Source: an uncultured delta proteobacterium (lineage in GTDB: Bacteria; Desulfobacterota; Binatia; Binatales; Binataceae). From it: a stretch of 64,000 nt of DNA. A program made the translations under genes and the position numbers. The stretch lies in assembly GCA_963782535.1 (NCBI GenBank), contig CAWAKE010000009.1, positions 246,222 through 310,221 on the forward strand, in the 5' to 3' direction. A model generated the notes under the pieces. The model searched no databases, had not been told where the DNA came from, and saw only the letters and a list, made by a program, of their open reading frames with translations. This document shows, one piece after another, positions 25,244 through 54,798 of the stretch. Position 1 is the first letter of the stretch. Each line of letters begins with the position of its first letter.

Positions 25244-26575
25244 CTATTTGGTTCCCAAGGCCGCGAGCGGACCGCGATCCACTACTGGTACACGCTTGGA
25301 TCCCTGCGCCAGTGCGACGCTACCGGGGGTGCGCTGGAACGGATCGCGAAGGTCGATTTCCTGCGCATGAGCCTTGAGGGCAGGGATTACTTCCTCGGCA
25401 AACAGTCGCATGCTGGTGCGCCGGTCGTCGTCGCCGATGGGACCTTGAATACTCAGAATAATAAAAATCCCGGTGCGCAGAACGCTCATGATTGACTTGA
25501 TCTTGGGGATCAAGGTTTTCGGCGTGCCGGCGAGGACCTGCATGTTCTGTTGTCCGCGCATCAACGCGGCGTGCAGTTTGCGCCGGATCTCCGCGTAATC
25601 GAGTGCGCCGTCATCGCTGCCGTGCATCTGCTGGCGCACCTTCTCGCCGCTGATGCCGAGCCACGCGCTGGTCTGCTGTTTCGCCAGTATGCGAATTGCG
25701 GCCTTGGAGTTGTAGCCGGGGGGCATCGTGAACTCCGGCGCCGAGAACGCATTCTGGCCACCGCCGTAAACGAATCCTTCCGCGACCTTTTGCGCCTTTT
25801 CTTCCGTTTCTCCGACGGCGGTCGCAACCATGTAGCCAAAGTTTTCAGGGCCGGCCTGATACCCATGCTTGGCGGCTTCGTCGGCGTAAAAGTCCCACAG
25901 GTCGCAAGTTGGCGCGAGCGGGGTGCCGAGCCCGATGTAGGGGTAGCGATGCGCGGCGCACCACTGCACGGTTTCGGGACTGAGCGTGCCGGGAATCCAC
26001 ATCGGCGGATGCGGCTTCTGATACGGCAGCGCCCACGGATTGACGTGCCGATAATGAAAATGCTTGCCCTCGTAACGCCACGGGCCGGGCCGCGTCCACG
26101 CCTGCACGATGAAGTCGTGGGCCTCGTTGAACATCTCGCGGTTGTAAGCCGGATTCGCGTTGTTGAAGAATTGCTCGGAGCCGGCGCCACGGACCCATCC
26201 GGTGACGAGGCGGCCGCGCGAAATGAGATCGATCTCGGCCAGCTCCTCGGCCATCCGCAACGGATGCTTGATCACCGGGAGCGGATTGCCAATCAGCACG
26301 AGGCGTACGCGCTTGGTCCGATACGCGAGCACCGACGCCTCGACGTTCATCACCGAGCCCATGCAAATGGGGTTGCCGTGATGTTCGTTGAGCGCGACTA
26401 CGTCGAAACCCAGGTCCTCGGCGTAACAGTTTTCGTCGAGGTAGTAATGGTAGTCGTCGGCCGCTTTTTCACGGTCGTATAATTTATTCGATATGCCGAA
26501 AAACGCACCGTTGCGGAGAATCTCTTCTTCGGGGAGCCAGCGATAGGGCCGTTCGGTGAAATAACCTATCTGCAT
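25244..26575 (-). CDS. LLM-class flavin-dependent oxidoreductase (long, LimB-like subgroup)
   Basis: Trimmed to MQIGYFTERPY; NEHHGNPICMGSVMNV, LVLIGNPLPVIKHPLRMAEELAEIDLIS. 444 aa. The track ORF (504 aa) has an implausible Arg/Ser-rich leader. Confidence 0.8.
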   Translation of the reverse strand: MQIGYFTERPYRWLPEEEILRNGAFFGISNKLYDREKAADDYHYYLDENCYAEDLGFDVVALNEHHGNPICMGSVMNVEASVLAYRTKRVRLVLIGNPLPVIKHPLRMAEELAEIDLISRGRLVTGWVRGAGSEQFFNNANPAYNREMFNEAHDFIVQAWTRPGPWRYEGKHFHYRHVNPWALPYQKPHPPMWIPGTLSPETVQWCAAHRYPYIGLGTPLAPTCDLWDFYADEAAKHGYQAGPENFGYMVATAVGETEEKAQKVAEGFVYGGGQNAFSAPEFTMPPGYNSKAAIRILAKQQTSAWLGISGEKVRQQMHGSDDGALDYAEIRRKLHAALMRGQQNMQVLAGTPKTLIPKIKSIMSVLRTGIFIILSIQGPIGDDDRRTSMRLFAEEVIPALKAHAQEIDLRDPFQRTPGSVALAQGSKRVPVVDRGPLAALGTK

Positions 26576-26926
26576 CGCGATGTCCTTTTTTGTCGGTATC
26601 GTTAATAAAATACGTGCGGCGAAGCGAGCAAATCGGCCAGTACCGGAGCCTCGGCGAGATTCGCAAGCCTGCGCCCGTCCGCGCGGCGCCGAGTGGACCC
26701 GCACCATCCGAGGATACCGGACTTCAGGATTACTAGCCCGAATGGAAGTAATGGGCAATAAAGAACGCTCAAGCGGCGGCGGCCGAGGGCGCGAGCGGGC
26801 TCGATCAAGCGCAAAACCGCTAACCCCCGGTCCGCCTCATGCGCTAGAATCAGCACCCCGCGGTTCCATTGAGCCAGTTGCCTTGAGTGTCGGAGCCGCG
26901 ATGCCTTTTCGCGAAAGGAAAACACG

Positions 26927-27892
26927 ATGGCACGATGCGGCATTTCACTTTCACCGATGTCGGGAATTCCCCATCCGGAGTTCATACAACTCGCACGCGA
27001 GGTCGAGGACGCCGGCTTCAGCGGGGTCTTCATTCCGGAGGCCAACAATGACGGGTTGATGTGTTGCTACGCAGTCGCCGGCGCGACCAAGCGGGTCGAG
27101 ATCGGGACCTGGATCGTCAATATTTATTTGCGCGAGCCCACCCTATGCGCGGCCGCAGCCGAAATGGTTCAAGACGCCGCCGGTGGCCGCTTCATCCTGG
27201 GTTTGGGCGTGAGTCATCGTCCGGCCCTGGAAGCGCGCGGAATCCAGATGGGCAACGCCCGCGACCGCCTGCGCCGCGACACACAGATTATTCGCGCGAC
27301 GCTCGGCGGCGAGACCGCAATGTTCGGGATGAAATTTCGCCAGCCAAAAAACCCGATTCCTATCTACTTTGCGGCTCTCGCACTCGAAACTGCCCGCCTC
27401 GCCGGCGAAATTGCGGACGGCCTGATGCTTTACCTGTGCCCGCCGGAGCGGATGCGCAAATCGATCGATGTCGCACACGCAGCGGCCCAGCAGCACGGTC
27501 GCAAGCCGTCGGCGATCGCGGCGACGGTCGGATTGCCGGTTTTTCTGCACAGCGACCTAAAGGTCGCGTACGCTGCGGCTCAACGCGGACTTGCCTTCTA
27601 TGGGGCGCTGCCGTTTTACAATCGCCTGATTGCGCGCAGCGGCTTCGAATCCGCCGCGAATGCGATCATGGCGGCGGCCAAGCGCAACGACGCCAGCGCG
27701 ATGGCGGCTGCGGTGACGGAGCCGATGATCGATTCACTGGCGCTCGTTGGCCCCGAATCTCGATGCTTCGAGCGGCTGGAGCAGTACCGCGAACACGGCG
27801 CCGAGCTTCCAATCATAGTTCCCAACGCGGTTAACGAGGATTACACAACTGCCGTGCGCCGCATTGTGAAGTCATTCGCGAAGCTCAATTAG
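26927..27892 (+). CDS. LLM-class F420-dependent oxidoreductase
   Basis: AAAGGA RBS 7 nt upstream. GFSGVFIPEANND..FILGLGVSHRPALEARG and C-terminal AVNEDY pattern of F420-type LLMs. Confidence 0.8.
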   Translation: MARCGISLSPMSGIPHPEFIQLAREVEDAGFSGVFIPEANNDGLMCCYAVAGATKRVEIGTWIVNIYLREPTLCAAAAEMVQDAAGGRFILGLGVSHRPALEARGIQMGNARDRLRRDTQIIRATLGGETAMFGMKFRQPKNPIPIYFAALALETARLAGEIADGLMLYLCPPERMRKSIDVAHAAAQQHGRKPSAIAATVGLPVFLHSDLKVAYAAAQRGLAFYGALPFYNRLIARSGFESAANAIMAAAKRNDASAMAAAVTEPMIDSLALVGPESRCFERLEQYREHGAELPIIVPNAVNEDYTTAVRRIVKSFAKLN

Positions 27893-29443: not shown

Positions 29444-30520
29444 TCACACCGCAGCGAAATGCGGCATCACCTCGTCCATCAGCATGCGCTGGGAGTTCGC
29501 CCAGCCTTCGGAATTTTCCGATTGATCGAAAGTAAGTACGAGCAAGCAGCCGAAGCCGCCGGTGTCGTGCTGCATGTGTCCCAATTTTTCGGTGACGGTT
29601 TTGGGCGAGCCGACGAGCCAGCAATGGTCAGCCAGGTATTCAATCGTGACATCCGAATCCGGCACTTCCGGATGATGTTTGTACAAGCTGACCATGCCGA
29701 AGGATTTGAACAGCGGCAGCAGATAATCCCGATAGACTCGTCCGAGCATGCCATTGATGGCTTGATCGCGCGCTTCCTTATCGGTTTCTGCTATATACAC
29801 TTCGCGCGCAACCCGCCAGTCTTTGCGAGACGGAGTGCGGCCGGTTTTTTCGGCACCCGCGACTACCGCGTTCCAATGGGTCTTCAGGTAGCTATCGCTG
29901 AGGGCGACACTCATCGGCATGAAGCCGCGCTCGCCGGCGAATTTCAACGTATCCGAGCCCGGCGTCAGACCGGCAATTCCGATTGGCGGATGCGGTTTCT
30001 GGAACGGTCGAATATGAAATTTCAAGGTGTCGAGCATCGTATCGATACGGTTCACCGTCCAGTACTTGCCCACGTATTCGAAGGGCTCGGTGCTTTCCCA
30101 CAGACGCAGGATGATGTCGAGGGCCTCGAGCGTCATGCGTCGGTTTTCGCCGCCGGCGCCATCGACGTTAAACAGCTTCCAGTCGCTGGGCAGGCCGCTG
30201 GTGCCGACGCCAAACATGAAGCGGCCTTGCGCCAGGTGATCCAAATACGCCACGCGATGCGCCAGCTCGGCCGGATGATGATAGGGCAGCAGGTGAGCTC
30301 CGGGGCAGAGCTTGATTTTTTTGGTGCGCAGCAGGCCTTGCGCGATGAGTAAGTCCGGCGCCGGATTCGGCTCCCACGGGGAGGTGAAGTGCTCACCCAT
30401 CCAGGCTTCTTCGAAACCCAGCTTGTCGCACAGTTCGAGATGCTCCAGGTCCCATTGATGACCCGCGAGAAGAGTCCTCTCCGGTGGGTGGGAGGGCATC
30501 ATGAATACACCTGCTTTCAT
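29444..30520 (-). CDS. LLM-class flavin-dependent oxidoreductase (LimB-like)
   Basis: Trimmed to MKAGVFMMPSHPPERTL; EEAWMGEHFTSPWEP, KLCPGAHLLPYHHPAELAHRVAYLDHLAQGRFMFGVG. The 34-aa leader in the track ORF is not protein-like. Confidence 0.8.
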   Translation of the reverse strand: MKAGVFMMPSHPPERTLLAGHQWDLEHLELCDKLGFEEAWMGEHFTSPWEPNPAPDLLIAQGLLRTKKIKLCPGAHLLPYHHPAELAHRVAYLDHLAQGRFMFGVGTSGLPSDWKLFNVDGAGGENRRMTLEALDIILRLWESTEPFEYVGKYWTVNRIDTMLDTLKFHIRPFQKPHPPIGIAGLTPGSDTLKFAGERGFMPMSVALSDSYLKTHWNAVVAGAEKTGRTPSRKDWRVAREVYIAETDKEARDQAINGMLGRVYRDYLLPLFKSFGMVSLYKHHPEVPDSDVTIEYLADHCWLVGSPKTVTEKLGHMQHDTGGFGCLLVLTFDQSENSEGWANSQRMLMDEVMPHFAAV

Positions 30521-30844
30521 ACGATCTCCTTGCCGACAGCTTGCTGTTCCATCGCACATTAAGGGATCGGAGCGCGTGCGGTCAAAGACCCCGGAAGTCG
30601 CGCGCAGAGTCCCGTCAACCATCGAGATCTATCTGTTGGCAGCCGAAAAGTCACCTGTTCTGGCCGCCGAAATCCTGGCCGCGATCAGCCGGGATTTGCC
30701 GCTGAAATTACAGTGGACGTGTTAGGATCGACTTCGAGCGAATCGCCGCGTGAAATTCCGGCAAGATTTGAGTATCGTGCATCCCGCCTCGAGTAGCGTG
30801 CAAACTTTTTCGATGAGCGCCATTATGGGCGCAGGAGAGCTTCG

Positions 30845-31729
30845 ATGGACATAGGCATTCTGGTCGCGACCACGGCTCGAACGGGAGCTATAGATGCGAT
30901 CGCTCGGGCGGTCGAGAACGGCGGATACGAATCGCTCTGGATACCCGAACATCCGGTGATTCCGGTCGGGTTCAAGACCGCAGTTCCCGGCGGTGGCAAG
31001 TTGCCCGAACACTACGGCCGCTGGGTCGATCCGTTCGTCGCGCTTTCAATCGCCGCAGCCGTGACGAAGCGAATCAAGCTTGCGACCGGCATCTGTCTGT
31101 TGCCGGAGCGCGAGCCGCTGATCACGGCCAAGTCGGTAGCGAGCCTCGACCTCTACTCTGGAGGCCGCGTGGTGCTGGGCGTTGGCGCGGGATGGCTGCG
31201 GGAAGAGACCGAGGCGATGGGCGCCCACTTCGGATCGCGCTGGAAGCGGCTGCGCGAGACGGTCGAGGCGATGCGCGTGCTCTGGTCAGAACCGGAGCCG
31301 GCCTACGCGGGCGAGTTGGTTCATTTCCCCGCCGTCAGATGCGAACCGAAGCCCTTGCAGAAGCCCTATCCGCCAATTCTTCTCGGCGGTCACGGACCGA
31401 AGGCCCTCGAGCGGGTGGCGCGGACCTATGATGGGTGGATGCCGCTGGTGCCCAACCCTGAATCGCTCAAGCGCGATGTGACGGCGTTGCGGAAACTCGC
31501 TGCCGACCACGGACGCGACCCCAAGGCGTTGCATATCACCGCGCTGGTTGATCCGGGCGAAAACGGACCGTCGTCAGACGAGCTGCAGAAGTACGCCGAG
31601 GCCGGAGCAAGCCGCGTAGTGCTCTTCTCGCAACGGATGGCGATTGCGATCGCCGACGGTGCAGCACTCGAACTGATCAAACGTTTCGAGCCAGTCGTGG
31701 AACAGGCGCGAAAGATCGGGACAAAGTGA
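30845..31729 (+). CDS. LLM-class F420-dependent oxidoreductase
   Basis: 294 aa; MDIGILVATTAR.., ESLWIPEHPVIP, KLATGICLLPEREPLITAKSVASLDLYSGGRVVLGVGAGW. Confidence 0.8.
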   Translation: MDIGILVATTARTGAIDAIARAVENGGYESLWIPEHPVIPVGFKTAVPGGGKLPEHYGRWVDPFVALSIAAAVTKRIKLATGICLLPEREPLITAKSVASLDLYSGGRVVLGVGAGWLREETEAMGAHFGSRWKRLRETVEAMRVLWSEPEPAYAGELVHFPAVRCEPKPLQKPYPPILLGGHGPKALERVARTYDGWMPLVPNPESLKRDVTALRKLAADHGRDPKALHITALVDPGENGPSSDELQKYAEAGASRVVLFSQRMAIAIADGAALELIKRFEPVVEQARKIGTK

Positions 31730-32198
31730 TCGACGCGGGCGAGAATTGCCGCATCAGCCGATGGTTCGTGTAAGCGGGTCGGTCCGGTGCATCGGCGGTG
31801 CGGTGCCTCATATCGTAGTGGCAGCGTGATGGGCGCGATGATCCGAGATCGCCCGCGCCGCTTGCTAATCGGTACCGTTGCCTATTCAATTGCAGAGCTA
31901 TGCGCAGCATTCGGTAAGTTCGCGCGCTCCGGTCGGCGGTCGGCACCTGATCCTCCTCATCTCCGAAATTACCCTTCCAGAACCGCGCATTCGAATCTGA
32001 ATCATACCGCTAGCCCCCGCATGGGGTTTGGGCTATAACCGGCGGACTCAACTTTGAGTGGCGGGCAACCCAGGAGCATGAGAGACTCCTGCGCCGCCAG
32101 GGTGGCCAGCTAATTTGCCACTGGCCGAACGCTTGCTAATCCGGGCGGAGAAAAGCACGGTGTGCATGCCGGGGGCGTTTTGAGAGCGAGGTGTACCA

Positions 32199-33260
32199 AT
32201 GAGTAGGGGACAGGGAGCGAGGCACGACAGGTTGAAATCGATCTGGATACTGGCGCTGTGCGTCGGCCTGATCATCGCCGGTTGGCCAACAGGGGCATCC
32301 GTTGCAGCTGCGGCATCGCCGGGGCTGGGCGTCGGGCGTGCCAGCCGGCCATGGGAGAACTATTTCGGAGTTGCGCTATTGCAGGCAGATCGCGCGGTGG
32401 TGGTCGGCGATAAGGGCGTCGTGATGACCTCGGCGAATCGCGGGAGCACGTGGACCCGCATCCAACTCAAGAAAGACGACAAATATTACGATCTGTACAG
32501 CGTAGCCTTCGCCCCGGACGGATCCAGTGGGTGGGCGGTAGGAGACGGCGGAGCGATTTTTCACACCGGCGACAGTGGCGCGACATGGACCCTGCAAAAA
32601 TCCGGAGGGTCCACGGCATTGCTCAAAATCGCTGTGATCGACTCCCAAAAGGCGTGCGTGGCCGGTGAGCACGGCTTGATACTCTGCACGGTTGACGGCG
32701 GCGCCAATTGGGTAGCCACGAAATTCGAGGACCTGGTCTTCTTCGACATCGCCTTTACGGACCCGAACCATGGATGGGCCGTGGGCGAATTCTCAACCAT
32801 CGTGCGCACGATTGATGGGGGAAAGACCTGGACCGTTCAGGTTGGCGGCAAGCGGCTGGTGACACTTGACCCGTATTTCGCGCTCGATTTCAAGGACGCC
32901 GAAAACGGCATGGTGCTTGGGCTAAACGGTATTTATATGGCTACCAGCGACGGCGGTAATACGTGGAAAGCCGGCAAACTACCCAATCAGAACCATTCCT
33001 TTTACGCGGAGGTAGCTGCACCGGTGGACGGATCGGTCGCCTACTATGCCGGCGGCGAGAACGGGATGACCGGGCGCATCGTCGATGAGAAGGTAATCCG
33101 CACCGCCACGGCCACCTCGAACTCGATCACTTCCATTGCTTTTAAGTCCAACTTCGGACTGGCGGTCGGTTTATCGGGCACCGTCATGCGGAGCGAAGAT
33201 GGCGGCCAGACGTGGACCCAACTGCAGGGTAGTCGACTCGTCGAAACCCTAGCTAAATAG
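32199..33260 (+). CDS. secreted BNR/Asp-box beta-propeller protein (Ycf48/photosystem-II-assembly-factor-like)
   Basis: Signal-anchor LKSIWILALCVGLIIAG followed by at least five Asp-box-like repeats (SANRGSTWT, TGDSGATWT, TVDGGANW, TIDGGKTWT, TSDGGNTWK, SEDGGQTWT). Confidence 0.65.
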   Translation: MSRGQGARHDRLKSIWILALCVGLIIAGWPTGASVAAAASPGLGVGRASRPWENYFGVALLQADRAVVVGDKGVVMTSANRGSTWTRIQLKKDDKYYDLYSVAFAPDGSSGWAVGDGGAIFHTGDSGATWTLQKSGGSTALLKIAVIDSQKACVAGEHGLILCTVDGGANWVATKFEDLVFFDIAFTDPNHGWAVGEFSTIVRTIDGGKTWTVQVGGKRLVTLDPYFALDFKDAENGMVLGLNGIYMATSDGGNTWKAGKLPNQNHSFYAEVAAPVDGSVAYYAGGENGMTGRIVDEKVIRTATATSNSITSIAFKSNFGLAVGLSGTVMRSEDGGQTWTQLQGSRLVETLAK

Positions 33261-33269
33261 GCAATCACA

Positions 33270-35684
33270 ATGAGAAATCCATCATTCAGTATCGGCGCCC
33301 TTATTTTGCGTTTCCGGGCTCCAATTGGCGCTCTGCTGTTGTCGGTTACGCTCTTCATGGTGTATGCGGCCACGCACGTGGAAGTCGGAACTCGATTCGT
33401 CGATTTCTTTCCGAGCTATCATCCGTACGTCCTGCTCAACGAAAAGTTTCAGCGATCGTTCGGCGGAGCGGAAACGCTCGCGATAATGGTCCACGTCAAG
33501 GACGGCAACATTTTCAATGAGACGACCTTGAAGAAACTTCAAGGTCTGACGGAAGCGATGAACGCGCTCCCGGGCGTAAATCACGAAGAGGTGTTTTCGC
33601 TCGCGTCGTTCCGCATCAACTTCGTCAAGGCTGAGTCAGGCGCACTGATCACCCAAGCGTACATGTACCCGAAAGTGCCGACCACGGCGCAGGGTATCGC
33701 CAAGCTAAAGGCCAATGTAATCGAGCATCAGGACGCCCTGCGCCAACTTGTCAGTGAGGATTTTAAAAGTGCGATGGTCACGGCGTCCTTCAATGACGCT
33801 GCGATCAACTACCGCGTATTCTTCACGGATGTTCAGAACATAATTAAGAAGTACCAGGATGCGAACAATCGCATCTACGTAGCGGGCGAGCCAATTACCC
33901 GAGGATGGGGATACCATTATCTGCCAACCCTGGTAGCTGTCATTTTTATATCGCTCGCGATCATCGTGCTGGTCCATTATTACGGCATTCGCGGGATCGC
34001 CCGATGGTGGGCACCGCTGATGACGGGGGCTTGTTCCGCGCTATGGGGTATGGGCTTTACCGGATTAATCGGATTTCAACTGGACCCGGTGATGCTCGTT
34101 ATACCGTTCATTCTGACGGCGCGTGACGTCAGCCACGGTATTCAGTGGCAGCGCCGTTTCTATAGCGAAATCGAGAGAAGCGGTGGTGACGTCTATAGTG
34201 CGGTAGTTTCGACTACCAACTTGATGTTGCCTCCCGGTCTGGTTTCGATTCTGGCCGACATCTTCGGAATCATCTTCGTTTCTTTCAGCGGTATTCCGGT
34301 CCTCCATCATATAGCGCTTACCGGCGCCGTCTGGGTGGCTGCAAGCCTCCTGATGGTATTTGTGTTCCAGCCGATCGTGATGAGCTATATGCCGCCGCCG
34401 AGACTCGAAGGCAAAATCGATGAACATCTGTCTGGCGGGCTCGAAGGACAGATTGATCGGATGATTGCGAACCTCGTGGAATTTCCGGTTCGTCCCGGGT
34501 GGGCGCGTACTATCATTCTGTGGGGCGCGGCCGGCTTTATAGTCCTGGGCCTGTTATCCGGTCAGCACGCGAGCATTGGTTACAGAACGATCGGTACTCC
34601 GCTGTATCGCTCCACGGCCAAGGTAAACCGGGACATCCAGTCCATCGCCCAGTACTTCCCCGTGGACGAAGGTTGGGTGGTCCTCGAAACGCCGTCCTAT
34701 CCTAGTCCCGAATCCACCCTGGGCCCGAATGCACTTCGCTCGGCGGACGACCTGCGCGACTACTTGCGCGAGCGTGATCCTAACGTATTGCAGGTCATCT
34801 CGTTTGCGTCGGACATCGAGAAGCCATTCAACCAGATGTTCCATTACGCGCATCCGAAATTTCTTCGTATTCCCGAGAATACCGAATTAGCCGGAAATCT
34901 CTGGTACCTGTACCTATCGGGAACCGCTCCCGGCGAAATGGAACGGTACATTCCGAATTCTCAGGCGGATGCTACCTGCATTCGGATTTTACTGCGCGAC
35001 CACACCTACGACACGCTGAATCGCCTGCTCTCTGAGGTCCAGCAGTTCAAAAGGACGCGCGTGCAACCGGATCCGACTCTGAGCAAGCTCAAGATGGCGT
35101 ATCTCGGAGGTATTGCGGGTCTGTACGCGGCCGCCAATCAGGTACTGAAGTATACCGACTTCTTCAATTTGACGCTGACTTTGTGTGCTGTCGGGATATG
35201 CTGTGCAATCGAGTTCCGTTCCTTCACGGCGGGCATCCTGTTTATCGCGGCGAGCGTGCTGGCGAATTTCGGGGCCTTCATTTACATGAATGCCAGGGGA
35301 CTCACTCTCACGATCGATACTATTCCGGTTGTGTCGCTCGGCATCGGACTAGGAATCGACTATGGTATTTACACAGTGGCCGCGATACGAGACGAGGTAA
35401 TCGGCGGAAAAGAGATTACCGAGGCAATTATGATTGCGATGAGGGGTACAGGAGGCGCGGTTCTCAATACCCTGTTCGTAATGCTCGGCGGTCTGTCAGT
35501 CTGGATGTTTTCGCCCATTGACTTTCATGTACGCATGGCCGAACTGTTGATTTTTCTGATGATCACCAACGCAATAACCGGTGTGGTCGTTTTGCCCAGC
35601 TTTATCTCTGCATTCCGGCCGGCGTTCATCAACCGCTATGTTCAACAGGCGCAGGCCGAGCGGGAGCGAAAAATCGCCACATAG
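33270..35684 (+). CDS. RND-superfamily exporter with sterol-sensing-domain topology (MMPL/HpnN-like)
   Basis: 804 aa, two blocks of ~6 TM helices each preceded by a large periplasmic loop. Begins 9 nt after the BNR gene stop, so they are probably co-transcribed. Confidence 0.8.
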   Translation: MRNPSFSIGALILRFRAPIGALLLSVTLFMVYAATHVEVGTRFVDFFPSYHPYVLLNEKFQRSFGGAETLAIMVHVKDGNIFNETTLKKLQGLTEAMNALPGVNHEEVFSLASFRINFVKAESGALITQAYMYPKVPTTAQGIAKLKANVIEHQDALRQLVSEDFKSAMVTASFNDAAINYRVFFTDVQNIIKKYQDANNRIYVAGEPITRGWGYHYLPTLVAVIFISLAIIVLVHYYGIRGIARWWAPLMTGACSALWGMGFTGLIGFQLDPVMLVIPFILTARDVSHGIQWQRRFYSEIERSGGDVYSAVVSTTNLMLPPGLVSILADIFGIIFVSFSGIPVLHHIALTGAVWVAASLLMVFVFQPIVMSYMPPPRLEGKIDEHLSGGLEGQIDRMIANLVEFPVRPGWARTIILWGAAGFIVLGLLSGQHASIGYRTIGTPLYRSTAKVNRDIQSIAQYFPVDEGWVVLETPSYPSPESTLGPNALRSADDLRDYLRERDPNVLQVISFASDIEKPFNQMFHYAHPKFLRIPENTELAGNLWYLYLSGTAPGEMERYIPNSQADATCIRILLRDHTYDTLNRLLSEVQQFKRTRVQPDPTLSKLKMAYLGGIAGLYAAANQVLKYTDFFNLTLTLCAVGICCAIEFRSFTAGILFIAASVLANFGAFIYMNARGLTLTIDTIPVVSLGIGLGIDYGIYTVAAIRDEVIGGKEITEAIMIAMRGTGGAVLNTLFVMLGGLSVWMFSPIDFHVRMAELLIFLMITNAITGVVVLPSFISAFRPAFINRYVQQAQAERERKIAT

Positions 35685-35960
35685 AAGCGATTGTCGGGGA
35701 GCCATTACGTGTCAGAACGGCTCCGGGCGACTAGAAGAAGCATTTCGCTTTGAGGGTCAATTGCGAAGCTAACTCGATTCACGCGGGCGTGCCCACGACG
35801 CCCGCGTGAATCGGTTCCGCTGAGGAACCGAACCGTTCACTCTTGCGAGGACCGATCCGACCACCAATCGAAGTAACTATTTGGCGCGGCGTCTGGTCCG
35901 CAGTCGCTGATGTGCCTCCGAATAGTCAGTTGGCGGCGCGAGTGGATAATCCGGCAGGCG

Positions 35961-37019
35961 TCAGCGCCAGATACCGAAGACACGGAATCCCGTTGATACC
36001 CACGACGTGAAGTGAGCCGTGACCTCCATCGGGCGTGCGCCCATGATGCCCGCAGCAACAATCCAGTTGCGTAACTCATGATCGCCGTTGTTCTCGATAT
36101 CCGGCGAGTCGTAGTCGGCCAACAGGCTCCCTTGTCCGCGTTCGAACCAGTGCATCTTTTCAATATTGCCTTCGAAATCCATGCGCATGCGATCGTATTT
36201 CCTGGTAAGCCATGTGTGCGACCAGGTTGAACTCGGACAAATCATTACGCGCTCTGGTCGTCGCATGAGGACCTGGCGAATTGCCCGGCCCATCGCATAG
36301 AGGCGGTGTGAGGTCGGCGCGGGCGGATACCCGCTGGTCGATTTAGCCTCCAACCCCTGTCCCGACGCCATGGTTCCGAAAATGTTGAGATCGGAGCCAT
36401 AGCAGTTAATCATGATCGGGACGAGCGGGTACTTGCCTCCATCGTTGTGCAGAAAGAGCTGAGTATTGGCGTGTGCGTGGCCCAAGCCGTTTTGCCAGCG
36501 GTCGCTATTCAGATCATTGGAGGAAGCGATGTCGAATTCATTTCTAATCAATTCATCGCGAATAGCCACTGCCAATTCGGAATGACAAGGCCACGAATAG
36601 CGATGATCAGCGGCAACACCCCAGGTGGCCTTGATATATTCCACATCCCCGGGCAGGCGCGACATATTAAACGGCTTTGCGTCCACCTCGTTGCCAACAT
36701 AGATAGCGTAAGGGGGGAGGTTATTGGCCTGGAAGCATTGAGCCTGATCGTCACCGATCATCAGGATCGCGTCCGGGGAGACTTCATCGATGTATTCGCG
36801 CAACCGGTTGAACGCCTGCCAATGCAAATGATGATGCTCCTCGCCCACTTTTGTGGGGTTGTCGCCAAGCTGCGCGACGGCTTCCGGTGGATCCTGGAAC
36901 GGTCGTCCATCCAGCTTTTCCACCATCTTGCAGAGCATCTGGCGCATCCGAAACATGTTTTGCGGCGCGCTCATGAGATAGGGCACGTGAGAAGTCCCGA
37001 TGCCAAAAATTTCTCCCAT
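35961..37019 (-). CDS. class III extradiol ring-cleavage dioxygenase (LigB family)
   Basis: MGEIFGIGTSHVPYL N-terminus and His-rich active-site region (EEHHHLHW.., ..HAHAN..) consistent with LigB/AmnB-type catechol extradiol dioxygenases. 352 aa. Confidence 0.6.
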   Translation of the reverse strand: MGEIFGIGTSHVPYLMSAPQNMFRMRQMLCKMVEKLDGRPFQDPPEAVAQLGDNPTKVGEEHHHLHWQAFNRLREYIDEVSPDAILMIGDDQAQCFQANNLPPYAIYVGNEVDAKPFNMSRLPGDVEYIKATWGVAADHRYSWPCHSELAVAIRDELIRNEFDIASSNDLNSDRWQNGLGHAHANTQLFLHNDGGKYPLVPIMINCYGSDLNIFGTMASGQGLEAKSTSGYPPAPTSHRLYAMGRAIRQVLMRRPERVMICPSSTWSHTWLTRKYDRMRMDFEGNIEKMHWFERGQGSLLADYDSPDIENNGDHELRNWIVAAGIMGARPMEVTAHFTSWVSTGFRVFGIWR

Positions 37020-41108: not shown

Positions 41109-42398
41109 TTATGATTCGCCGTTCTGGCTGATCATGCGGTGAAACTGCACGCTCGCCGCGACCGCCGGGAGGAATCGGGTCTTGAACGCCTCGGGCGAAA
41201 GATTGGTCTCTTTCGCGAGCCGCGTGAGCATCGGTTCCTCCAGATCCTCGGCCTCAAGTCGAATCATGTACGAGCGCGCCACCTGATACGATTCCGCCGT
41301 CACGTCAACGCTGCGCGTGCGCACTCGGCCGGTTGCTGGGTCGAGCATCTCGTCGAGTTTGATCGGTTTGATCCGCCCGTTGACGACCGCGATCATTGCG
41401 CCCGAATTACCGCCGAGCAGATAGCGCACCGCACCGTAGCCAAGCGTGCGGGTATAGTCGATGTCGAACGGAAGCGGTCTCGCACAGCGCAACTCATAGC
41501 CGATCTCTTTGTTGACCACAGTCATCTGGATCCCGAGTCCGGCCAACGCCTCACGTACGTTGTCGCGCAGAAATAGCCCGAGCGGAATCTCTCCCAGCCG
41601 TCGATGGCCGTAAGCATCGCGCTCGACGCTTTCTGCCTGCGGCAGCGACGCCGGATCGATGAGTGCGGCAATGCCCTCGGCAATTACTGCCACACCGTCG
41701 GGCCGCCCGTTGGCCCAGCGCTTGATAATTGCGCCCGCGATCAAATCGACCACGGTCGTGAGTTCAAGCTTCGAATCCAGAAACTCCTCGGGGATCAGCG
41801 CCAGGGTCGCGCCCGCAGCCTTGCACATGCCAAGCGCAAGGGCGCCGGAAGTACGCCCCATTGTAACCACCGTGTACCAGCGCCCCGTGGTCAGCGCATC
41901 CTCCATCAAGGACTCGACCACCGTGGTGCCAAACGAACGCGCCGTCTCGAAGCCGAAAGTTGGCAGGTTCTCGGGCAAAGGCAGGTCGTTATCGATAGTT
42001 TTCGGCACCGTGACTATGCTCAGCTTGTGCCCGGCGCGCTCCGCGATCTTGGCCGCGGCAGTTGTCGTGTCGTCACCCCCGATACACACCAGGTAACGGA
42101 CCGAAAGCTCTTCCAGCGACCGCACCGCGCGCTCGAGACTCGCCTCCTCTCGCGCCGGATTGGTGCGCGAGGTTCCGAGAATCGAGCCGCCGGTGAAATG
42201 AATTCGGCTCACATCGGAGATTTTAAGCTCGACCGCGCGCGACGTGTCACCGCGCGCCAGCCAGTGGTACCCTTGTGGAATTCCGATTACCCGCAGCCCC
42301 GAGTTGATTGCCTCGATAGTCGCCGCTGCAATCACTGCGTTGATCCCGGGGGCGGGTCCACCGCCTACCAAGATCGCCAATGTCTGCTTCTGTGGCAT
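41109..42398 (-). CDS. pfp: 6-phosphofructokinase, pyrophosphate-dependent type
   Basis: LAILVGGGPAPGINAVI, GGDDT (Asp where ATP-PFKs have Gly) and PKTIDND (Lys where ATP-PFKs have Gly), MGR substrate motif. Start trimmed to MPQKQTL. Confidence 0.75.
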   Translation of the reverse strand: MPQKQTLAILVGGGPAPGINAVIAAATIEAINSGLRVIGIPQGYHWLARGDTSRAVELKISDVSRIHFTGGSILGTSRTNPAREEASLERAVRSLEELSVRYLVCIGGDDTTTAAAKIAERAGHKLSIVTVPKTIDNDLPLPENLPTFGFETARSFGTTVVESLMEDALTTGRWYTVVTMGRTSGALALGMCKAAGATLALIPEEFLDSKLELTTVVDLIAGAIIKRWANGRPDGVAVIAEGIAALIDPASLPQAESVERDAYGHRRLGEIPLGLFLRDNVREALAGLGIQMTVVNKEIGYELRCARPLPFDIDYTRTLGYGAVRYLLGGNSGAMIAVVNGRIKPIKLDEMLDPATGRVRTRSVDVTAESYQVARSYMIRLEAEDLEEPMLTRLAKETNLSPEAFKTRFLPAVAASVQFHRMISQNGES

Positions 42399-42952
42399 GA
42401 TTATAGACCTTGTACCCACCCGCCTCCTGACGGCCTTTCAGCGCCAGGTTGTGATTGTTGTTCTGGCGCAATAGTTCGAGATCGCTGGCGAAGAAATTGC
42501 GAAAGTGAATCGGAGCGCGTCTCTTCGCCGGCGAATCCCACAATCGAGCAACCGATGCCGTGTTGGCTTTTCGCGTCCCCTATAAGAATTATCCCTCGGA
42601 CCGGCGCCAGTCGAATGCCCTTCATTCTGCTGATGCGATTATCCCCCTGTTCGCGCCCCGCACGTCCGTCGCAGTTACTGGGGTTCCGCAGCCTGCCGAC
42701 CGGCGCCAGCGCACCGGCTGTGACCGATCCATGAGTTACCATTGCCATCGCCGAAGCCGCCGATTGCTCACACATCACCTGATAAGCAATTTTTGCTCCC
42801 GTGCGGTCCCTCGCACTGCTTACTCTCATAAGAGGTGGCTATTCGAAATTCACGCAGTAGGGTCAACGCAGGCCTTGCGCAGTTCCGGATTGTTGTAATA
42901 GATGAGCTATCGACAGATTAGTAATTGAGACGACGCTTCATAAGGAGAAATC

Positions 42953-43478: not shown

Positions 43479-44707
43479 ATGAATCGAACTCAAGCAGAAA
43501 ACGAAAAGAGGCCGCCGGCTGATGAAGCGCGTCTGGCCGGCCGGCTTCTGATCGAGCGGGCAATAGGACTCGCTGCGGGATTGCGCGAAAGATCCGACGA
43601 AGGCACCCGCCTTCGCCGCCTGCCCGATGGAAGCTGGAATGCGTTGCTCGATTCGGGCGTGCTACGAGGGCTGCAACCGTCCCGCTGGGGCGGGGGGAAA
43701 CAAATCTCCGCGACTTTTTTACCGCGGTTTCGGAGGTCGCAAGAGCCGACGGTTCCGCCGGTTGGGTGGCCGGAATTGTCGGCGTGCATCCATGGCAACT
43801 CGCATTTTTCCCAATCGAAACCCAACAGGAAGTTTGGGGCGGCGATCCGACCGTGATGCACTCCTCGTCCTATGCCCCTACCGGGCGAGCGGAAAAGGTC
43901 AGCGGTGGATATCGGCTGAATGGGCGCTGGTCCTTTTCGACCGGTTGCGATCACTGCCAATGGGTCAATCTCGGCGCGGTCACCGGCCCAATCGAAATCG
44001 ACGGAACCCCGGTCCAGGATTTTCGCTCGTTTATGCTGCCGCGTCGCGATTATAAAATCGACGACAACTGGCGCGTCGCCGGACTCTGCGGCACCGGCAG
44101 CAAGGATATCGTGGTAGAAAATGCGTTCGTGCCTGCACACCGCAGCCAATCGCATTGGGACTACATGCTGGGACGCGAAATGCCGGGATGGGAGTTCAAT
44201 CCGGCGCCGCTCTATCGCTTGCCGTTCGCGGCAGTTTTCAATTACGCGCTGTCCGCCTCCGTCCTCGGCGCCACGCGCGGATTCCTCGATGCCTGGATTG
44301 AGAGCACCCGGCCCCGCAAACTGGGTCTCGGCGGAATAGCCAGTGAAGATCCCTTCATCCAGAAGCTCCTCTCCGAAGCCGATTACGCGATTGACGCGGG
44401 CATGCTCAAGCTCCGCCGCGACTGCGACGAGTTGATGGACGCGGGCCGCGCGAGCGTCAGCCTCTCCCTGCAACGCCGCGCGGCAATTCGCTACAACGCC
44501 TGCCGCTCGGCGCAATTGGCCGCTCGCGCAATCGACCGCCTGTTTGAGTCGAGTACCGGCAAAGCGATTTTCCTCGATCATCCGCTGCAGCGGCGCTACC
44601 AGGATATCAAGGCGATGCTCGGCCACGCTTACCTCACTGCCGACAGTCCTGCGCGCATGCACGGCGCCATCGCGCTTGGCCAACCGGTAGTCAATCCGAT
44701 GCTGTGA
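43479..44707 (+). pseudogene. ACAD-fold flavin-dependent monooxygenase (HsaA/DszC/HpaH-like), frameshifted
   Basis: N-terminal 70 aa (frame of 43479) read ..LPDGSWNALLDSGVLRGLQPSRWGGG. The continuation ETNLRDFFTAVSEVARADGSAGWVAGIVGVHPWQLAFF... to the C-terminus is in the +1 frame (track ORF 43766..44707). The break falls in the G6 run at about 43692-43697. One extra G would restore a single ~410-aa ORF. Confidence 0.6.
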
Positions 44708-45120
44708 GCGACCTCCGTTTGCGATCGCAAAGGCCGTGCGGCGTCTCCTCATAAGGTACGGCCAATAAGTGACGGCACACTCCGGACAGTGTCGATTTAC
44801 GCCCGTTCACCTTACCGAACCTGTGCTGCGGCCAAATCGGACCCCTTTGATTATCTCGCTGGCCGCCGTTTTTCGCAATCCGACGCTGGTCATTAGGGCG
44901 GCGCCTGCTCCTCGATGCGGCATCTGTCCGCCGATCCGCGCCTCCCTCTCCAAACCAGTCGCGGGTTCGCTGCGTCACCGGTAATCTTAGCGGAATTATG
45001 ATGACCGACTGGCTACGCTCGGAGCATCAGGGTAATCGTTGCACTGGCGGCCGTCGGGTTACTATTCGCAGTTAGGCCCAGGGCTGTGGCATCTCGCGCC
45101 CAGGCTGACGAGCTCGAAGA

Positions 45121-46743
45121 ATGAAGCGGGAAAGTGGAATGAATATCGGTGACGCGAACGCGGTGATTGCCGCTAACTTGAGTGGGCGCGGGCGTTTGAG
45201 TCGCGTAGCCGTGCCGCGTTGTCGGCGTTTACTCAGATCCATCGCGGTCACGGCAATACTTGTAATCGCATTAGTTGAACCCGTAAAAGTCCACGCGGCA
45301 ATCGACCTGTTAACTATCGCCGGTCAACCGGTAGTGCTGAGCGCAACCGAACAAAACCGCGAACAGGTCTGGAACTGGTTCCCTGCCACCGACCCGGCGC
45401 AGGGGCCGGATTACCAGAACCGCTATAACTTCATGGGTAGCTGGATTCGGGTCGGCCTCGGTTACCAACTCGACGGTATCAAAGCCTTCGCCGAACTGAT
45501 GAGCCCATTTCTTATAAACCTGCCGGACGATGCGATTGTCGCTCCGCCGCCGGGTAAGGTCGGACCGCAAGGGCTGCTAGGTCTCGGCGCCAACTACTAT
45601 CAACCGCATCAGAATCCGAACGACGCCAGCGTCTTTCTCAAGCAGGCCTACCTCGAATTCGGACGCAACCTGATGCCCGGCTTCAATTTCAAGGGCGGCC
45701 GCTTCGAATTATTCGACGGGCTCGAATACCTGCCTGCGGAACTCAACCCGCAGCTCAGGTGGCTGGCCACCAACCGCATCGCACAGCGGCTGATCGGTAA
45801 TTTCGGCTTCAGTGACATCATGCGATCGTTTGACGGTGCGGTCGCAACCTACGGTAACGATACGTGGCAGGCGACCGTTATGTACGGTGTCCCGACCAAG
45901 GGCGTGTTCGACCTCAACGCCATGGAAGAGGTGCGCAATATGGACGTGGCCTATGCGTCGCTCAACGCTGGGCCGAGCGCTTTTCAATCCGATCTGTGGG
46001 GCGATTCTATCGGCCGGTTCTTCTATATCTATTACAACGACAGTCGCGGGCTGGCGCTGGTGGATAATCGCAGCCTGAGCGCAACGGCGGCTACGGGACC
46101 CGTCTCGATTGACACGGTGGGCGCGGATTACGCTCGCACGCTGACCGTGGGTCCGGGCAGCGCAGACTTTCTATTGTGGGGCGCAGGACAGTTCGGGTCC
46201 TGGGGTGCGCTCAGCCAGCGCGCCTACGCGATGGTGGCTGAGACCGGATATCGGTTTACCCATGCGCCCTGGAAGCCATGGCTACGCCTTGGTTACACCA
46301 TCGGTTCAGGCGACGGTAACAACCATGACTCGACCCACGCCACCTTCTTTCAGATTCTTCCCACCGCCCGGATTTACGCGATGACACCGATTTACAATAT
46401 GATGAATATCAACGACGCTATGGCGCAGTTGATGCTCGACCCGCTCACGAATCTCCAGATCCAAAGTGCGCTCCATGGATTGTGGCTCGACGCCAAAAAG
46501 GATCGCTGGTACGCGGGCGGAGGCGCTTTCGACAACCGAATCTTTGGTTATGCTGCGCGGCCCAGCAATGGTTACGGCTATCTCGGCACCCTGGCGGATT
46601 GTCAGATGACGTGGAAGGCTAACTCGCACTTTGCGTTGCAGCTTTACTACGGTCACGTCTTTGGTGGCAGTGTAGTCGGCAGTATCTATCCCGCGGGCCG
46701 CGAGTCTGACTACGGCTTTATTCAGACAACGTGGTCCCTCTAG
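45121..46743 (+). CDS. putative outer-membrane beta-barrel protein (alginate-export/DUF1302-like)
   Basis: N-terminal signal-like hydrophobic segment (LLRSIAVTAILVIALVEPVKVHAA), Gly/Tyr/Asn-rich alternating amphipathic strands throughout, aromatic C-terminal residue (..TTWSL). Family assignment is by general resemblance only. Confidence 0.45.
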   Translation: MKRESGMNIGDANAVIAANLSGRGRLSRVAVPRCRRLLRSIAVTAILVIALVEPVKVHAAIDLLTIAGQPVVLSATEQNREQVWNWFPATDPAQGPDYQNRYNFMGSWIRVGLGYQLDGIKAFAELMSPFLINLPDDAIVAPPPGKVGPQGLLGLGANYYQPHQNPNDASVFLKQAYLEFGRNLMPGFNFKGGRFELFDGLEYLPAELNPQLRWLATNRIAQRLIGNFGFSDIMRSFDGAVATYGNDTWQATVMYGVPTKGVFDLNAMEEVRNMDVAYASLNAGPSAFQSDLWGDSIGRFFYIYYNDSRGLALVDNRSLSATAATGPVSIDTVGADYARTLTVGPGSADFLLWGAGQFGSWGALSQRAYAMVAETGYRFTHAPWKPWLRLGYTIGSGDGNNHDSTHATFFQILPTARIYAMTPIYNMMNINDAMAQLMLDPLTNLQIQSALHGLWLDAKKDRWYAGGGAFDNRIFGYAARPSNGYGYLGTLADCQMTWKANSHFALQLYYGHVFGGSVVGSIYPAGRESDYGFIQTTWSL

Positions 46744-47681: not shown

Positions 47682-48212
47682 TCAGCAGCATGCTCCCGGT
47701 TTGCGCGGTTGCGCGGTATCGTGTGAGGCCGCGGGCACGCAGCAGGGCGCGTCTGAGGCTTCGGCGGCGGAGCTTTTACGATTGTGAAGCGGGATGCAAC
47801 AAGGCTCACCGTCAGAGCGCCTCATGCTCGTATCGTTGCCAAAGATTGGCACTTCGCCGAGAGTCTGAAAGTTCTCCCAAGCAAGGCCCTGCGGGTCGAG
47901 CACCCAATATTTGTTTCCCTTGGCGTAGCAACATTCGACCTCGGTCTCTTTTAAAGCCGCGGCCCCGCTCGCCTGCTCGGCGCGCATACTCAGTTCCGCG
48001 AGTTCCGCCGAATCCTCGGCCTGAAATCCCAAGTGATTGAGGCCGGGTTGGTGACCGCGCGCTGAAATCGCAAAATTTATGCGCGGCTCCTCCAGCATCC
48101 ACTTGGCATAATCGGCTCGCACAACCGTCGGCTGGATGCCGAACAAATCGGTATAGAACTTGATACTTACTTCCAGATTTTCCACTGCAACGTGAACATG
48201 AAAGCGTTTCAT
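47682..48212 (-). CDS. ArsI/CadI-family VOC (glyoxalase-fold) metalloenzyme
   Basis: Glyoxalase-like betaalphabetabetabeta start (MKRFHVHVAVENLEVSIKFYTDLFG), vicinal cysteine pair ..ETEVECCYAKG.. at about residues 94-95, and a C-terminal tail with three more Cys pairs (EPCCIPLH, APCCVPAAS, GACC). Confidence 0.6.
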   Translation of the reverse strand: MKRFHVHVAVENLEVSIKFYTDLFGIQPTVVRADYAKWMLEEPRINFAISARGHQPGLNHLGFQAEDSAELAELSMRAEQASGAAALKETEVECCYAKGNKYWVLDPQGLAWENFQTLGEVPIFGNDTSMRRSDGEPCCIPLHNRKSSAAEASDAPCCVPAASHDTAQPRKPGACC

Positions 48213-48593
48213 AGAGGCCTCCTCATTCTTGTTTAAAGAAATCTTGCGACAGGCTCGCCGGATGCCGCCGATTGCTTAACTCGCTCGAGCTTCAAGCTTG
48301 ACTGACGCTACTTATAATTCTATAAATATAAAACTATAGAGATGTCAAGCGGGCGACCTGCAGCCGTCGCCGAAATCCGCGGCCGACGCTCAACCTGGGA
48401 CCTCTCAATACCGAAGTGTAGGGAATCCAGGCGTGGACAGTTCGTTTAGTGGTCCCACTTTGCGAGGTAAGCGAGTTTTCGTGAATCAGAGGTTAACGCA
48501 GCGTTACGTCTTGGTTTGTTTTCGGTTGAATCACGCGAACGCAAGCCTTCGAAGATTGATTTCATCAAGGCATAACTCTAGACAGGTAGAACT

Positions 48594-48974
48594 ATGAGGA
48601 AATCGAATGTCATCTCGGGGTTGAGTGCCTTAGCTCAGGAAACCCGTCTCGATATCTTCCGGCTGCTGGTGACGAGAGGGCCCGAGGGACTGCCGGCGGG
48701 TGAAATCGGCATGCGTCTTGGACAGCCCTCGCCCACGCTTTCGTTTCATTTGAATCAGCTCAGGTTCGCTGGGCTCGTGACTTCACGCCGTGAGAGCCGC
48801 TCAATTCTTTACAGCGCAAACTTCAAGGCGATGAACGATTTACTCGCTTATCTGACGGAAAACTGCTGTGGTGGACGCTCGGACTTGTGCGCTCTCGATG
48901 CGTCCGCAACTCGCGAATCAATTCCGGCCTCGATAAAAGCCACGCGTGGCAATAGGACCGACGGTAAAAAATAG
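48594..48974 (+). CDS. arsR: ArsR/SmtB-family metalloregulator
   Basis: LAQETRLDIFRLLV...EIGMRLGQPSPTLSFHLNQLRFAGLV winged-HTH core plus C-terminal Cys cluster ENCCGGRSDLC (type-2 As(III)-binding site arrangement). Divergent from the VOC gene, upstream of acr3. Confidence 0.8.
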   Translation: MRKSNVISGLSALAQETRLDIFRLLVTRGPEGLPAGEIGMRLGQPSPTLSFHLNQLRFAGLVTSRRESRSILYSANFKAMNDLLAYLTENCCGGRSDLCALDASATRESIPASIKATRGNRTDGKK

Positions 48975-49230
48975 GAGAGGGCTCAATGGCCCGTCGCGAA
49001 TTAAACTACCGGTATCGACGATGCAAAGCGCAAATTCTTTTCCCGCATCTATTCGGAACTGGAGAATCGCATAAAAATCATTGCCAGCTTGCCGATCGAT
49101 GCCCTCGACCGCCAGAAGCTGGAGAATCATGCACGCGAGATTGGCAAGGTGAAGCTTCCGAGTAAGGAAGAACGTTGAACACGCCCGTTCGCGATTTGAT
49201 AATGTCCCAACCCGCACCCAGGAGAATACC

Positions 49231-54713: not shown

Positions 54714-54798
54714 AGTAGCCTCCTCGGGGGCAGAATTTTCCACGAAAGTTGACCGCACTCGCCACCGACAAATCTCTCAGGTTTTTATCGTCGCCATA

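Follow-up and report, generated by a model that had tools for sequence, protein, structure and literature searches.

A beta-propeller-RND gene pair from the Binatota is a stand-alone, two-gene form of the AmeCD-type module

In a 64,000-nucleotide (nt) stretch of contig CAWAKE010000009.1 (the whole of which is called the window below), a gene for a secreted, Asp-box beta-propeller stands directly before a gene for a large RND-type transporter. This raised the question of what kind of system the two proteins form, what they might carry and whether they belong with the catabolic genes around them. The original prediction, made from the letters of the window, had described the two-gene module as one that recurs in Proteobacteria and offered the pair as a candidate for transport of hydrophobic compounds in the surrounding cluster. 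Here, we found that the pair is the two-gene form of the known AmeCD-type module, which it extends to a new phylum; the kind of system is not new.

We began with the layout of the two genes. Their coordinates and their junction were exactly as predicted, with the propeller gene ending 9 nt before that of the 804-residue transporter (Table 1). The junction reads AAA TAG gcaatcaca ATG and the two genes share one frame. A Shine-Dalgarno-like GAGGTG (32188-32193) is located 5 nt ahead of the propeller ATG, and in our reading of the 9-nt junction there was no Shine-Dalgarno sequence. The short gap, the lack of a Shine-Dalgarno sequence in the junction and the GAGGTG ahead of the first gene suggest translational coupling on one bicistronic message, which is the likely arrangement judging from the layout. 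Among the orthologous loci described below, the spacing between the two genes varied from gaps of 1-45 nt to short overlaps. The upstream LLM gene ends at 31729, and no open reading frame (ORF) of at least 150 residues is listed between there and the ATG at 32199; this 469-nt gap, together with the convergent gene downstream, sets the pair apart from its neighbours. A scan for the sigma-70 consensus gave no match in the upstream gap, and a simple scan of the 276 nt that follow the transporter gene found no terminator-like hairpin; both the promoter and the terminator scans did no better than with shuffled sequence. We also notice that read-through of the stop (TAG plus 9 nt, in one frame) would yield a propeller-RND fusion, although a functional fusion is unlikely because of the membrane topology.

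The 353-residue product of the first gene matched the Pfam family PSII_BNR (PF14870, E 1.5e-32, above the cutoff) and contained six Asp-box motifs, at residues 78, 123, 164, 204, 249 and 332. Residues 1-39 form a Sec-type signal peptide with a positive n-region, a hydrophobic core (15-29) and the sequence AAA/S at 37-40, which fits signal cleavage near residue 39; Cys21 lies inside the hydrophobic core and, in our own reading, there is no lipobox around it. The AlphaFold2 model, which was built with 25 homologues (pLDDT 85.6, mostly above 90 in the propeller region), consists of an N-terminal helix (6-27), a disordered linker and a 7-bladed propeller. In a fold search of the PDB with this model, the best 12 matches were all Ycf48, and PDB matches were found at the sequence level, too. 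The score for the Ycf48 equivalog model NF010237 was 121 bits versus a cutoff of 326 bits. Since this is far below the cutoff while that of PF14870 was exceeded, the protein should be called Ycf48-like, not Ycf48. Its homologues in JGI bear the COG4447 name. On the basis of sequence and model, the gene product is predicted to be a periplasmic, Ycf48-like (COG4447) BNR/Asp-box 7-bladed beta-propeller. Ycf48/HCF136 (PDB 2xbg, 5ojr) is likewise an exported 7-bladed propeller of the PSII_BNR family, and it binds the exposed (lumenal) face of a polytopic membrane protein. Unlike in that system, however, the partner here is an RND permease, and the window contains no photosystem genes.

For the 804-residue product, the only Pfam match at E<0.01 was MMPL (PF03176; 47.5 bits versus a cutoff of 20.5, E 1.6e-12, residues 610-756). 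The best NCBIfam model was HAE3 (TIGR00921, TC 2.A.6.7), which scored 112.4 bits with its best stretch at residues 13-417, and the JGI names of the homologues are the COG1033 name; the protein is best described, by its sequence, as HAE3-like. The AlphaFold2 model (pLDDT 66.6, pTM 0.62) has the order of transmembrane helix (TM) 1, periplasmic domain 1, TM2-6, TM7, periplasmic domain 2 and TM8-12, with a low-confidence insert (residues 513-565) in the second periplasmic domain. When the model was compared with known folds by Foldseek, MmpL4, MmpL5 and MmpL3 ranked first (E about 1e-23 to 1e-18, TM-score about 0.67, identity 13-15%), followed by NCR1/NPC1/NPC1L1 and Patched. All of these proteins handle lipids or other hydrophobic cargo. 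At the sequence level, phmmer found only Patched in the PDB (E about 2e-3), and a profile of 12 family members found MmpL3 (E 2.4e-8), MmpL5 and MmpL4. Thus, in the predicted label "MMPL/HpnN-like" the first half was right and the second was misleading, as the nearest solved relatives are MmpL3/4/5. We also considered an HAE1-type tripartite pump of the AcrB/MexB kind and rejected it, as MMPL was the only family matched and the window ORFs scanned included neither HlyD-type nor OEP-type genes.

The comparison with MmpS4-MmpL4, MmpS5-MmpL5 and MmpL3 (PDB 9syj, 8zkp, 6ajf) can be taken further, since these are the nearest solved folds and PDB sequences and share an Asp-Tyr motif with the window protein. 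MmpL4 and MmpL5, too, need a small accessory protein, whose gene is located just ahead of theirs; the accessory here is a 7-bladed propeller and not MmpS, and there is neither a coiled-coil extension nor an AcpM partner, unlike in the mycobacterial MmpL systems. Since outer-membrane barrels are encoded both in the window and in related loci, the host is presumably a diderm. To describe residue conservation we used 91 aligned RND sequences, namely 88 copies from Binatota and three proteobacterial homologues. D697-Y698 was invariant (91/91) and aligned to both D256-Y257 and D645-Y646 of MmpL3. H289 in TM4 was also invariant (91/91), whereas D286 of the same helix was kept in 88 of the 91 sequences, the three proteobacterial references having S, C and G instead. 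The acidic residue at D330 was kept in 90/91, including all three proteobacterial homologues. With D697, Y698, H289 and D330 conserved, the protein looks like a working, proton-driven RND pump.

The identity of the system as a whole was indicated by homology to known cassettes. In tblastn, the window RND matched permeases of proteobacterial megaplasmids with 24-27% identity over 94-99% of the length and E values down to 9e-80. The matched permeases of Aromatoleum EbN1 and Methylibium PM1 are located in annotated cassettes of YCF48-related, MMPL, DUF1302 and DUF1329 genes; the homologue on a P. aeruginosa plasmid belongs to a propeller-RND pair, and no DUF1302 or DUF1329 gene is annotated nearby in PLSDB, the annotation of which is incomplete. 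In Castellaniella defragrans 65Phen, AmeA (a DUF1302 barrel), AmeB (DUF1329, LolA-like), AmeC (a COG4447 propeller) and AmeD (an HAE3 RND) are co-induced by monoterpenes, and deletion of ameABCD lowered monoterpene tolerance and raised Nile Red accumulation (PMC6394551). Shewanella, Kangiella and Pseudomonas all showed cofitness of the four module genes, which P. stutzeri encodes at two separate loci (bioRxiv 10.1101/072470). In P. putida, PP_2018/PP_2019 (propeller/RND) and PP_0765/PP_0766 were required on Tween 20 and butyl stearate (bioRxiv 10.1101/2020.07.04.188060), and AlphaFold-Multimer predicted strong contact between PP_2018 and PP_2019 (PMC10866462). In a 2026 study, a "Nanopod" cluster of porin-like, DUF1329, YCF48-related and MMPL proteins was highly expressed in the benzene-degrading Desulfobacterota ORM2a (PMC13101534). 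The earlier statement that no substrate has been assigned to the module is therefore outdated in part, in view of the tolerance conferred by ameABCD, the role of PP_2018/PP_2019 on Tween 20 and butyl stearate, and the expression of the ORM2a cluster on benzene.

The window pair resembles AmeC/AmeD in that a Ycf48-like propeller gene with a signal peptide stands immediately upstream of a COG1033/HAE3-type RND gene of about 790-800 codons. The likeness to AmeD is one of description, and the identity of about 25% was measured on other proteobacterial RNDs of this type; three proteobacterial cassette RNDs served as outgroups for the Binatota copies. The organism bearing AmeABCD likewise degrades hydrophobic compounds, and cassettes of the same composition occur among the Binatota paralogues (see below). 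The differences are that the orthogroup of the window pair lacks AmeA (DUF1302) and AmeB (DUF1329) and that its host belongs to the Binatota. The same module is present in Shewanella amazonensis (Sama_1588-1591), where Sama_1590/1591 are the counterpart of the propeller-RND pair. In P. putida KT2440 and P. stutzeri the propeller and RND genes have a locus of their own, away from the DUF1302/DUF1329 pair, as they would here, and the split of PP_2018/PP_2019 sets a precedent for a stand-alone pair that uses outer-membrane parts encoded elsewhere. Since DUF1329 is unlinked in P. putida too, the missing linked DUF1329 does not disqualify the window pair as an AmeCD-type module. The ORM2a cluster combines YCF48-related, MMPL, DUF1329 and porin-like proteins; unlike the window pair, it has outer-membrane and periplasmic parts and a universal stress protein, and the evidence for it is one of expression. 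Both ORM2a and the nearest named relatives of the window RND outside Binatota are Desulfobacterota. In summary, the pair has the full-length RND homology to cassette permeases and the co-oriented upstream propeller with a signal peptide that mark the AmeCD type, and it is without the linked DUF1329 and the linked DUF1302 barrel, which are optional parts of the module.

The closest homologues of both proteins were found in metagenome-assembled genomes of Candidatus Binataceae (Binatota), not of Proteobacteria. By sequence relationship we place the host, an uncultured soil bacterium, in the Binataceae (Binatota) and not in the Proteobacteria, and the proteobacterial setting given in the original prediction does not apply to this locus. 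An exhaustive HMMER search with the RND against 1.84 billion representatives returned 477 clusters at E<=1e-30. The identity dropped sharply from the Binatota RND paralogues (45-53%) to the next relatives (at most 36%); the nearest taxon-named ones outside Binatota were from Syntrophorhabdaceae and Syntrophales (Desulfobacterota), at about 30-33% identity. A scan of species-representative genomes gave 79 loci, all from Binatota except for two probable mis-bins; they stem from 47 genomes, 23 of which contributed two to four loci each. The Binatota RND copies fall into about 10 clades, and the clade of the window protein comprises 17 loci with at least 69% identity, including 13 species genomes. 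When gene-neighbourhood conservation was checked, as the original prediction had proposed, the propeller gene was located upstream of the RND gene in all 16 evaluable orthologous loci, the 17th being cut by the contig end. A further 31 paralogous loci have the same adjacency, as do proteobacterial homologues with about 25% identity; overall, a propeller gene is directly upstream, on the same strand, in 47 of the 88 non-redundant full-length Binatota RND copies. This is far beyond chance. Pairwise divergence of propeller and RND was correlated with r=0.94 over 47 pairs, with the propeller evolving faster (63% versus 47% RND divergence between paralogues). Such co-divergence indicates that the two genes were inherited and duplicated as a unit, and at the sequence level we regard the propeller-RND pair as an evolutionary unit.

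The partner genes turned out to be much more variable. The predicted recurrence of the two-gene module, sometimes with DUF1302 and DUF1329 partners, was borne out by annotated proteobacterial cassettes and by cassettes in Binatota. Full four-gene cassettes were found among the Binatota paralogues in three gene orders (locus L088; loci L084, L086 and L087; loci L066, L072, L077, L080 and L089), that of L088 being DUF1302-DUF1329-propeller-RND, and four of the five cassette barrels tested scored above the Pfam DUF1302 cutoff. L088 shares one 657-kb contig with an orthologue of the window pair (L012). In the orthogroup of the window pair itself, there was no DUF1302 gene within 6 kb in any of the 17 loci, and DUF1329 occurred in one contig type only (L002-L004, next to an orthologue with 86% identity), between the amidase and propeller genes. 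The near-identical locus L011 (7186-8938) retains the amidase gene, and the DUF1329 gene present in L002 (6936-8306) is missing from it. We also searched for hidden partner genes in the window using tblastn, phmmer and lineage-specific hidden Markov models (HMMs). In the 64 kb, neither tblastn with the nearest DUF1329 protein of Binatota nor an HMM of Binatota DUF1329 (E<=10) gave a hit, and DUF1302 profiles from Proteobacteria or Binatota gave none at E<=10. Since the four-gene state is common to Binatota and Proteobacteria, it is probably ancestral, and the window orthogroup would then be a stripped two-gene form.

The RND clades without a propeller follow unrelated genes, such as those for MFS, amidohydrolase or porin proteins, or a DUF1329 gene. 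In addition, tandem arrays of two or three RND genes are present in some loci (L066 6193-15957, L077 45-15962 and L080 6245-15951). In these, a propeller-less RND gene directly precedes a full propeller-RND-DUF1302-DUF1329 cassette, with one more RND gene upstream in L077, and two permeases may share one partner set there.

How could the pair work? We consider it reasonably probable that it is a self-contained operon for the inner-membrane core of an AmeCD-type hydrophobe transporter, which moves its cargo outward at the expense of the proton gradient and has the propeller docked on it as an accessory. The proton gradient would drive the 12-TM permease through the membrane-embedded Asp, Tyr and His residues; the cargo, a small molecule of hydrophobic or amphiphilic character, would be taken up either in the periplasm or in the outer leaflet of the inner membrane, and the permease would pass it outward through its two periplasmic domains. 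The secreted propeller, made in step with the permease, would dock on these domains as an obligate, stoichiometric accessory subunit, much as MmpS does on MmpL4/5. In the full cassettes, the LolA-like DUF1329 carrier and the DUF1302 outer-membrane barrel would continue the route, while in the window orthogroup the transport may either stop at the periplasm (as for MmpL3 and HpnN) or borrow outer-membrane parts from a paralogous locus. The gene identities, folds, conserved pairing, relay residues and homology to proteobacterial cassettes were observed directly, and from them we infer the physical docking, the outward direction and the use of partners in trans. The outward direction is suggested by the nearest solved relatives, as MmpL4/5/3 are lipid or siderophore exporters, followed by NPC1 and Patched. 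Several results weigh against this reading. The RND did not reach the TIGR00921 cutoff of 351.9 bits; the confidence of its model was moderate; in 41 of the 88 Binatota RND copies there is no propeller gene next to the RND gene, which shows that this RND lineage has no universal need for one; and the reported growth defects on Tween 20, butyl stearate, limonene and phenanthrene fit uptake equally well.

The genes around the pair bear on the choice between export and uptake. They are as originally described, with LLM and Rieske genes upstream and oxygenase genes downstream (Table 1). The LigB match of the downstream LigB-like protein is weak and covers no more than the C-terminal third (residues 231-337, E 1.4e-10); the protein, which is paired with the Amidohydro_2 gene and the Rieske oxygenase, may be an extradiol dioxygenase of divergent sequence. 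At least eight LLM genes are present in the window, including those at 10456-11511, 11554-12798, 53595-54758 and 61045-62094, and adjacency to an LLM gene is therefore genomic background and uninformative. LLM is also the commonest neighbour family in the related Binatota loci, a striking family expansion. The orthologous pairs have different surroundings (amidase and TauD; DUF179, MFS, PNPOx and Lactamase_B; or a hydrolase and DUF899). When 124 flanking ORFs of the 13 orthologous genomes were pooled and scanned with Pfam, LLM (15), MFS (10), ECH (9) and SDR (6) recurred, and Rieske and LigB genes did not. A conserved catabolic neighbourhood was rejected on these grounds: with the flanks not conserved and the LLM genes being background, a tie of the pair to the adjacent dioxygenase genes is without comparative support. 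The hydrophobe transport proposed in the original prediction remains the best reading of the pair, whereas its link to the adjacent cluster was not upheld.

The main rival explanation is that the pair is an uptake device, which would draw terpenoids, aromatic and aliphatic hydrocarbons or fatty esters out of the periplasm, bring them into the inner membrane and feed them as growth substrates to the neighbouring LLM, Rieske and LigB-type oxygenases. The position of the pair among oxygenase genes speaks for it, as do the high expression of the ORM2a cluster on benzene, which it was proposed to carry across the membrane (PMC13101534), and the substrate transport proposed by the authors of Foldy (PMC10866462). 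We nevertheless consider uptake rather unlikely, since the characterised fold relatives (MmpL3/4/5) all transport outward or extract lipids, the surrounding set of oxygenase genes is not kept in the 13 orthologous genomes, and small hydrophobic molecules enter membranes by partition, which makes a pump unneeded. Moreover, deletion of ameABCD raised dye accumulation and toxicity, which is the signature of lost efflux (PMC6394551). Inward movement is also part of another, unlikely reading, according to which the module in Binatota is a multi-paralogue toolkit for hydrophobe trafficking and the stand-alone orthogroup works in the inward or retrograde direction, delivering hydrophobic growth substrates to the inner membrane for the very numerous LLM and Rieske oxygenases of the phylum, without a dedicated outer-membrane partner; its basis is the at least 10 RND clades, the 2-4 or more copies in about half of the sampled genomes and the occurrence of all presence/absence combinations of propeller, DUF1329 and DUF1302. 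Alternatively, the propeller could act on the RND only transiently, as a chaperone of its assembly or stability, much like Ycf48 on the photosystem II protein D1, and not be a working subunit. Ycf48 is indeed an assembly factor (PDB 5ojr, 8am5), Puentes-Cala and Harder proposed that AmeC takes part in assembly (PMC6394551), and the 41 RND copies with no propeller next to them indicate that a dedicated propeller is not needed for the permease fold to exist. A chaperone is decidedly unlikely in our view: the 9-nt gap with no separate ribosome-binding site and the co-divergence suggest a stoichiometric partnership, propeller and RND mutants are cofit in several species (bioRxiv 10.1101/072470), and the interface predicted by AlphaFold-Multimer for the P. 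putida pair is strong and stable (PMC10866462).

The two other explanations concern the identity of the parts. HpnN is the characterised HAE3 member, nominally of the same family and of the same RND superfamily, and its model TIGR03480 gives a weak C-terminal match to the window RND, so a housekeeping, HpnN-type hopanoid exporter had to be considered. The score was 17.5 bits versus a cutoff of 751.85, which misses the family model widely, and the PDB matches were MmpL3/4/5, with no HpnN structure matched by phmmer at E<0.01 or by the family profile at E<=1. HpnN membership was ruled out by these two results; the firm grouping with HpnN that the original prediction had named as evidence against itself was not observed. 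Moreover, HpnN operates without a dedicated periplasmic partner (PMC6394551), there were no hopanoid genes seen among the window ORFs scanned, and about half of the sampled genomes have 2-4 copies of the RND. We regard a hopanoid exporter as refuted at this level, with next to no probability left. The barrel gene starting at 45121, which had been suggested as a distant partner, could in principle provide the outer-membrane part of a dispersed tripartite system, as it is located in the same window and DUF1302 barrels were reported to be AlgE-like in fold (PMC13499233). It is an Alginate_exp protein without DUF1302 signal, on which the Binatota DUF1302 profile was silent even at E<=10, and no homologue of it was found in any of the 89 related loci, a search limited by their 10-kb flanks. 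Between the pair and the barrel there are seven opposite-strand ORFs (phosphofructokinase included) and one same-strand acyl-CoA-dehydrogenase-like ORF. Its closest homologues (78% and 64% identity) belong to other clusters: the former (L093 8688-11608), the closest on a long contig, directly follows an MFS gene in a nitrate reductase/NirBD cluster and the latter is in a copper-oxidase/cytochrome c cluster, and there was no propeller, RND or DUF1329 gene near either. The barrel was rejected as a partner on account of its family, its absence near related loci and the unrelated clusters of its homologues, and it is very improbable that it serves the pair. We read it as most likely a porin-type channel with no relation to the pair, and the nitrate reductase/NirBD setting of the 78% homologue hints at a subfamily of anion (nitrate/nitrite) channels rather than polymer or lipid exporters.

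Table 1. Coordinates of the propeller-RND pair, its parts and its neighbours in the window
Feature	Position	Strand	Basis or remark
Intergenic region, presumed promoter region of the bicistronic operon	31730-32198	+	469 nt; promoter inferred
Propeller gene	32199-33260	+	353 aa; ORF map
Junction gcaatcaca	33261-33269	+	9 nt, between propeller TAG and RND ATG
RND permease gene	33270-35684	+	804 aa; ORF map
RND periplasmic domain 1	33396-33917	+	residues ~43-216, TM1-TM2; AlphaFold2 model and hydropathy
D286-V-S-H289 codons, TM4 (helix 273-303)	34125-34136	+	alignment column counts; AlphaFold2 helix
D330 codon, fifth TM helix	34257-34259	+	alignment; AlphaFold2 model
RND periplasmic domain 2	34566-35111	+	residues ~433-614, TM7-TM8; AlphaFold2 model
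D697-Y698 codons, TM10, within GIGLGIDYGIY	35358-35363	+	Asp-Tyr proton-relay motif
Region after the RND stop up to the convergent LigB-like gene	35685-35960	.	276 nt; operon end
Rieske alpha and beta subunit genes	starts 23294, 24608		upstream of pair
LLM genes	25244-26758, 26927-27892, 29444-30622, 30845-31729		upstream of pair; family match
CMD gene	start 27919		upstream of pair
LigB-like gene	35961-37019	-	downstream of pair, convergent
Amidohydro_2, Rieske and SDR genes	starts 37034, 38565, 39885		downstream of pair
Alginate_exp barrel gene	45121-46743		family match, E 8.9e-29; 9.4 kb downstream of pair

Some further features of the window were noted on the way. Other genes encode acyl-CoA dehydrogenases, an enoyl-CoA hydratase and a flavoprotein similar to Baeyer-Villiger monooxygenases, and a phosphofructokinase-family gene (41109-42419, minus strand) is located amid the catabolic and oxygenase genes. 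The 420-residue ORF at 43490-44752 (minus strand) had no family match and is probably spurious, because the overlapping 43766-44707 (plus strand) matches the C-terminal domain of acyl-CoA dehydrogenase (E 6e-20); the real gene there, just upstream of the barrel, is probably this plus-strand acyl-CoA-dehydrogenase fragment. An SBF gene (sodium/bile-acid symporter family, 49231-50370, plus strand) encodes another candidate carrier for amphiphilic carboxylates, and the G+C content dips to 0.525 at 48001-50000. The DDE transposase gene at 52116-53435 (minus strand; DUF772, DDE_Tnp_1, DDE_Tnp_1_6) is likely part of an insertion sequence. A tRNA-Leu gene (anticodon TAA, 10187-10273, plus strand) was the sole RNA gene that Rfam and ARAGORN detected in the window.

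The propeller-RND module is widespread in degraders of hydrocarbons, terpenes and lipids, and it recurs in fitness and proteomic screens. The module itself has already been described, its mechanism being poorly understood, and the window locus alone adds no new principle; what is new here is its stand-alone two-gene form in a new phylum. Our results place the module in the Binatota, in which it has given rise to many paralogues that differ in their sets of partners. This natural variation, from the propeller only through the propeller with DUF1329 and the full cassette to the RND alone, could reveal which partner does what.

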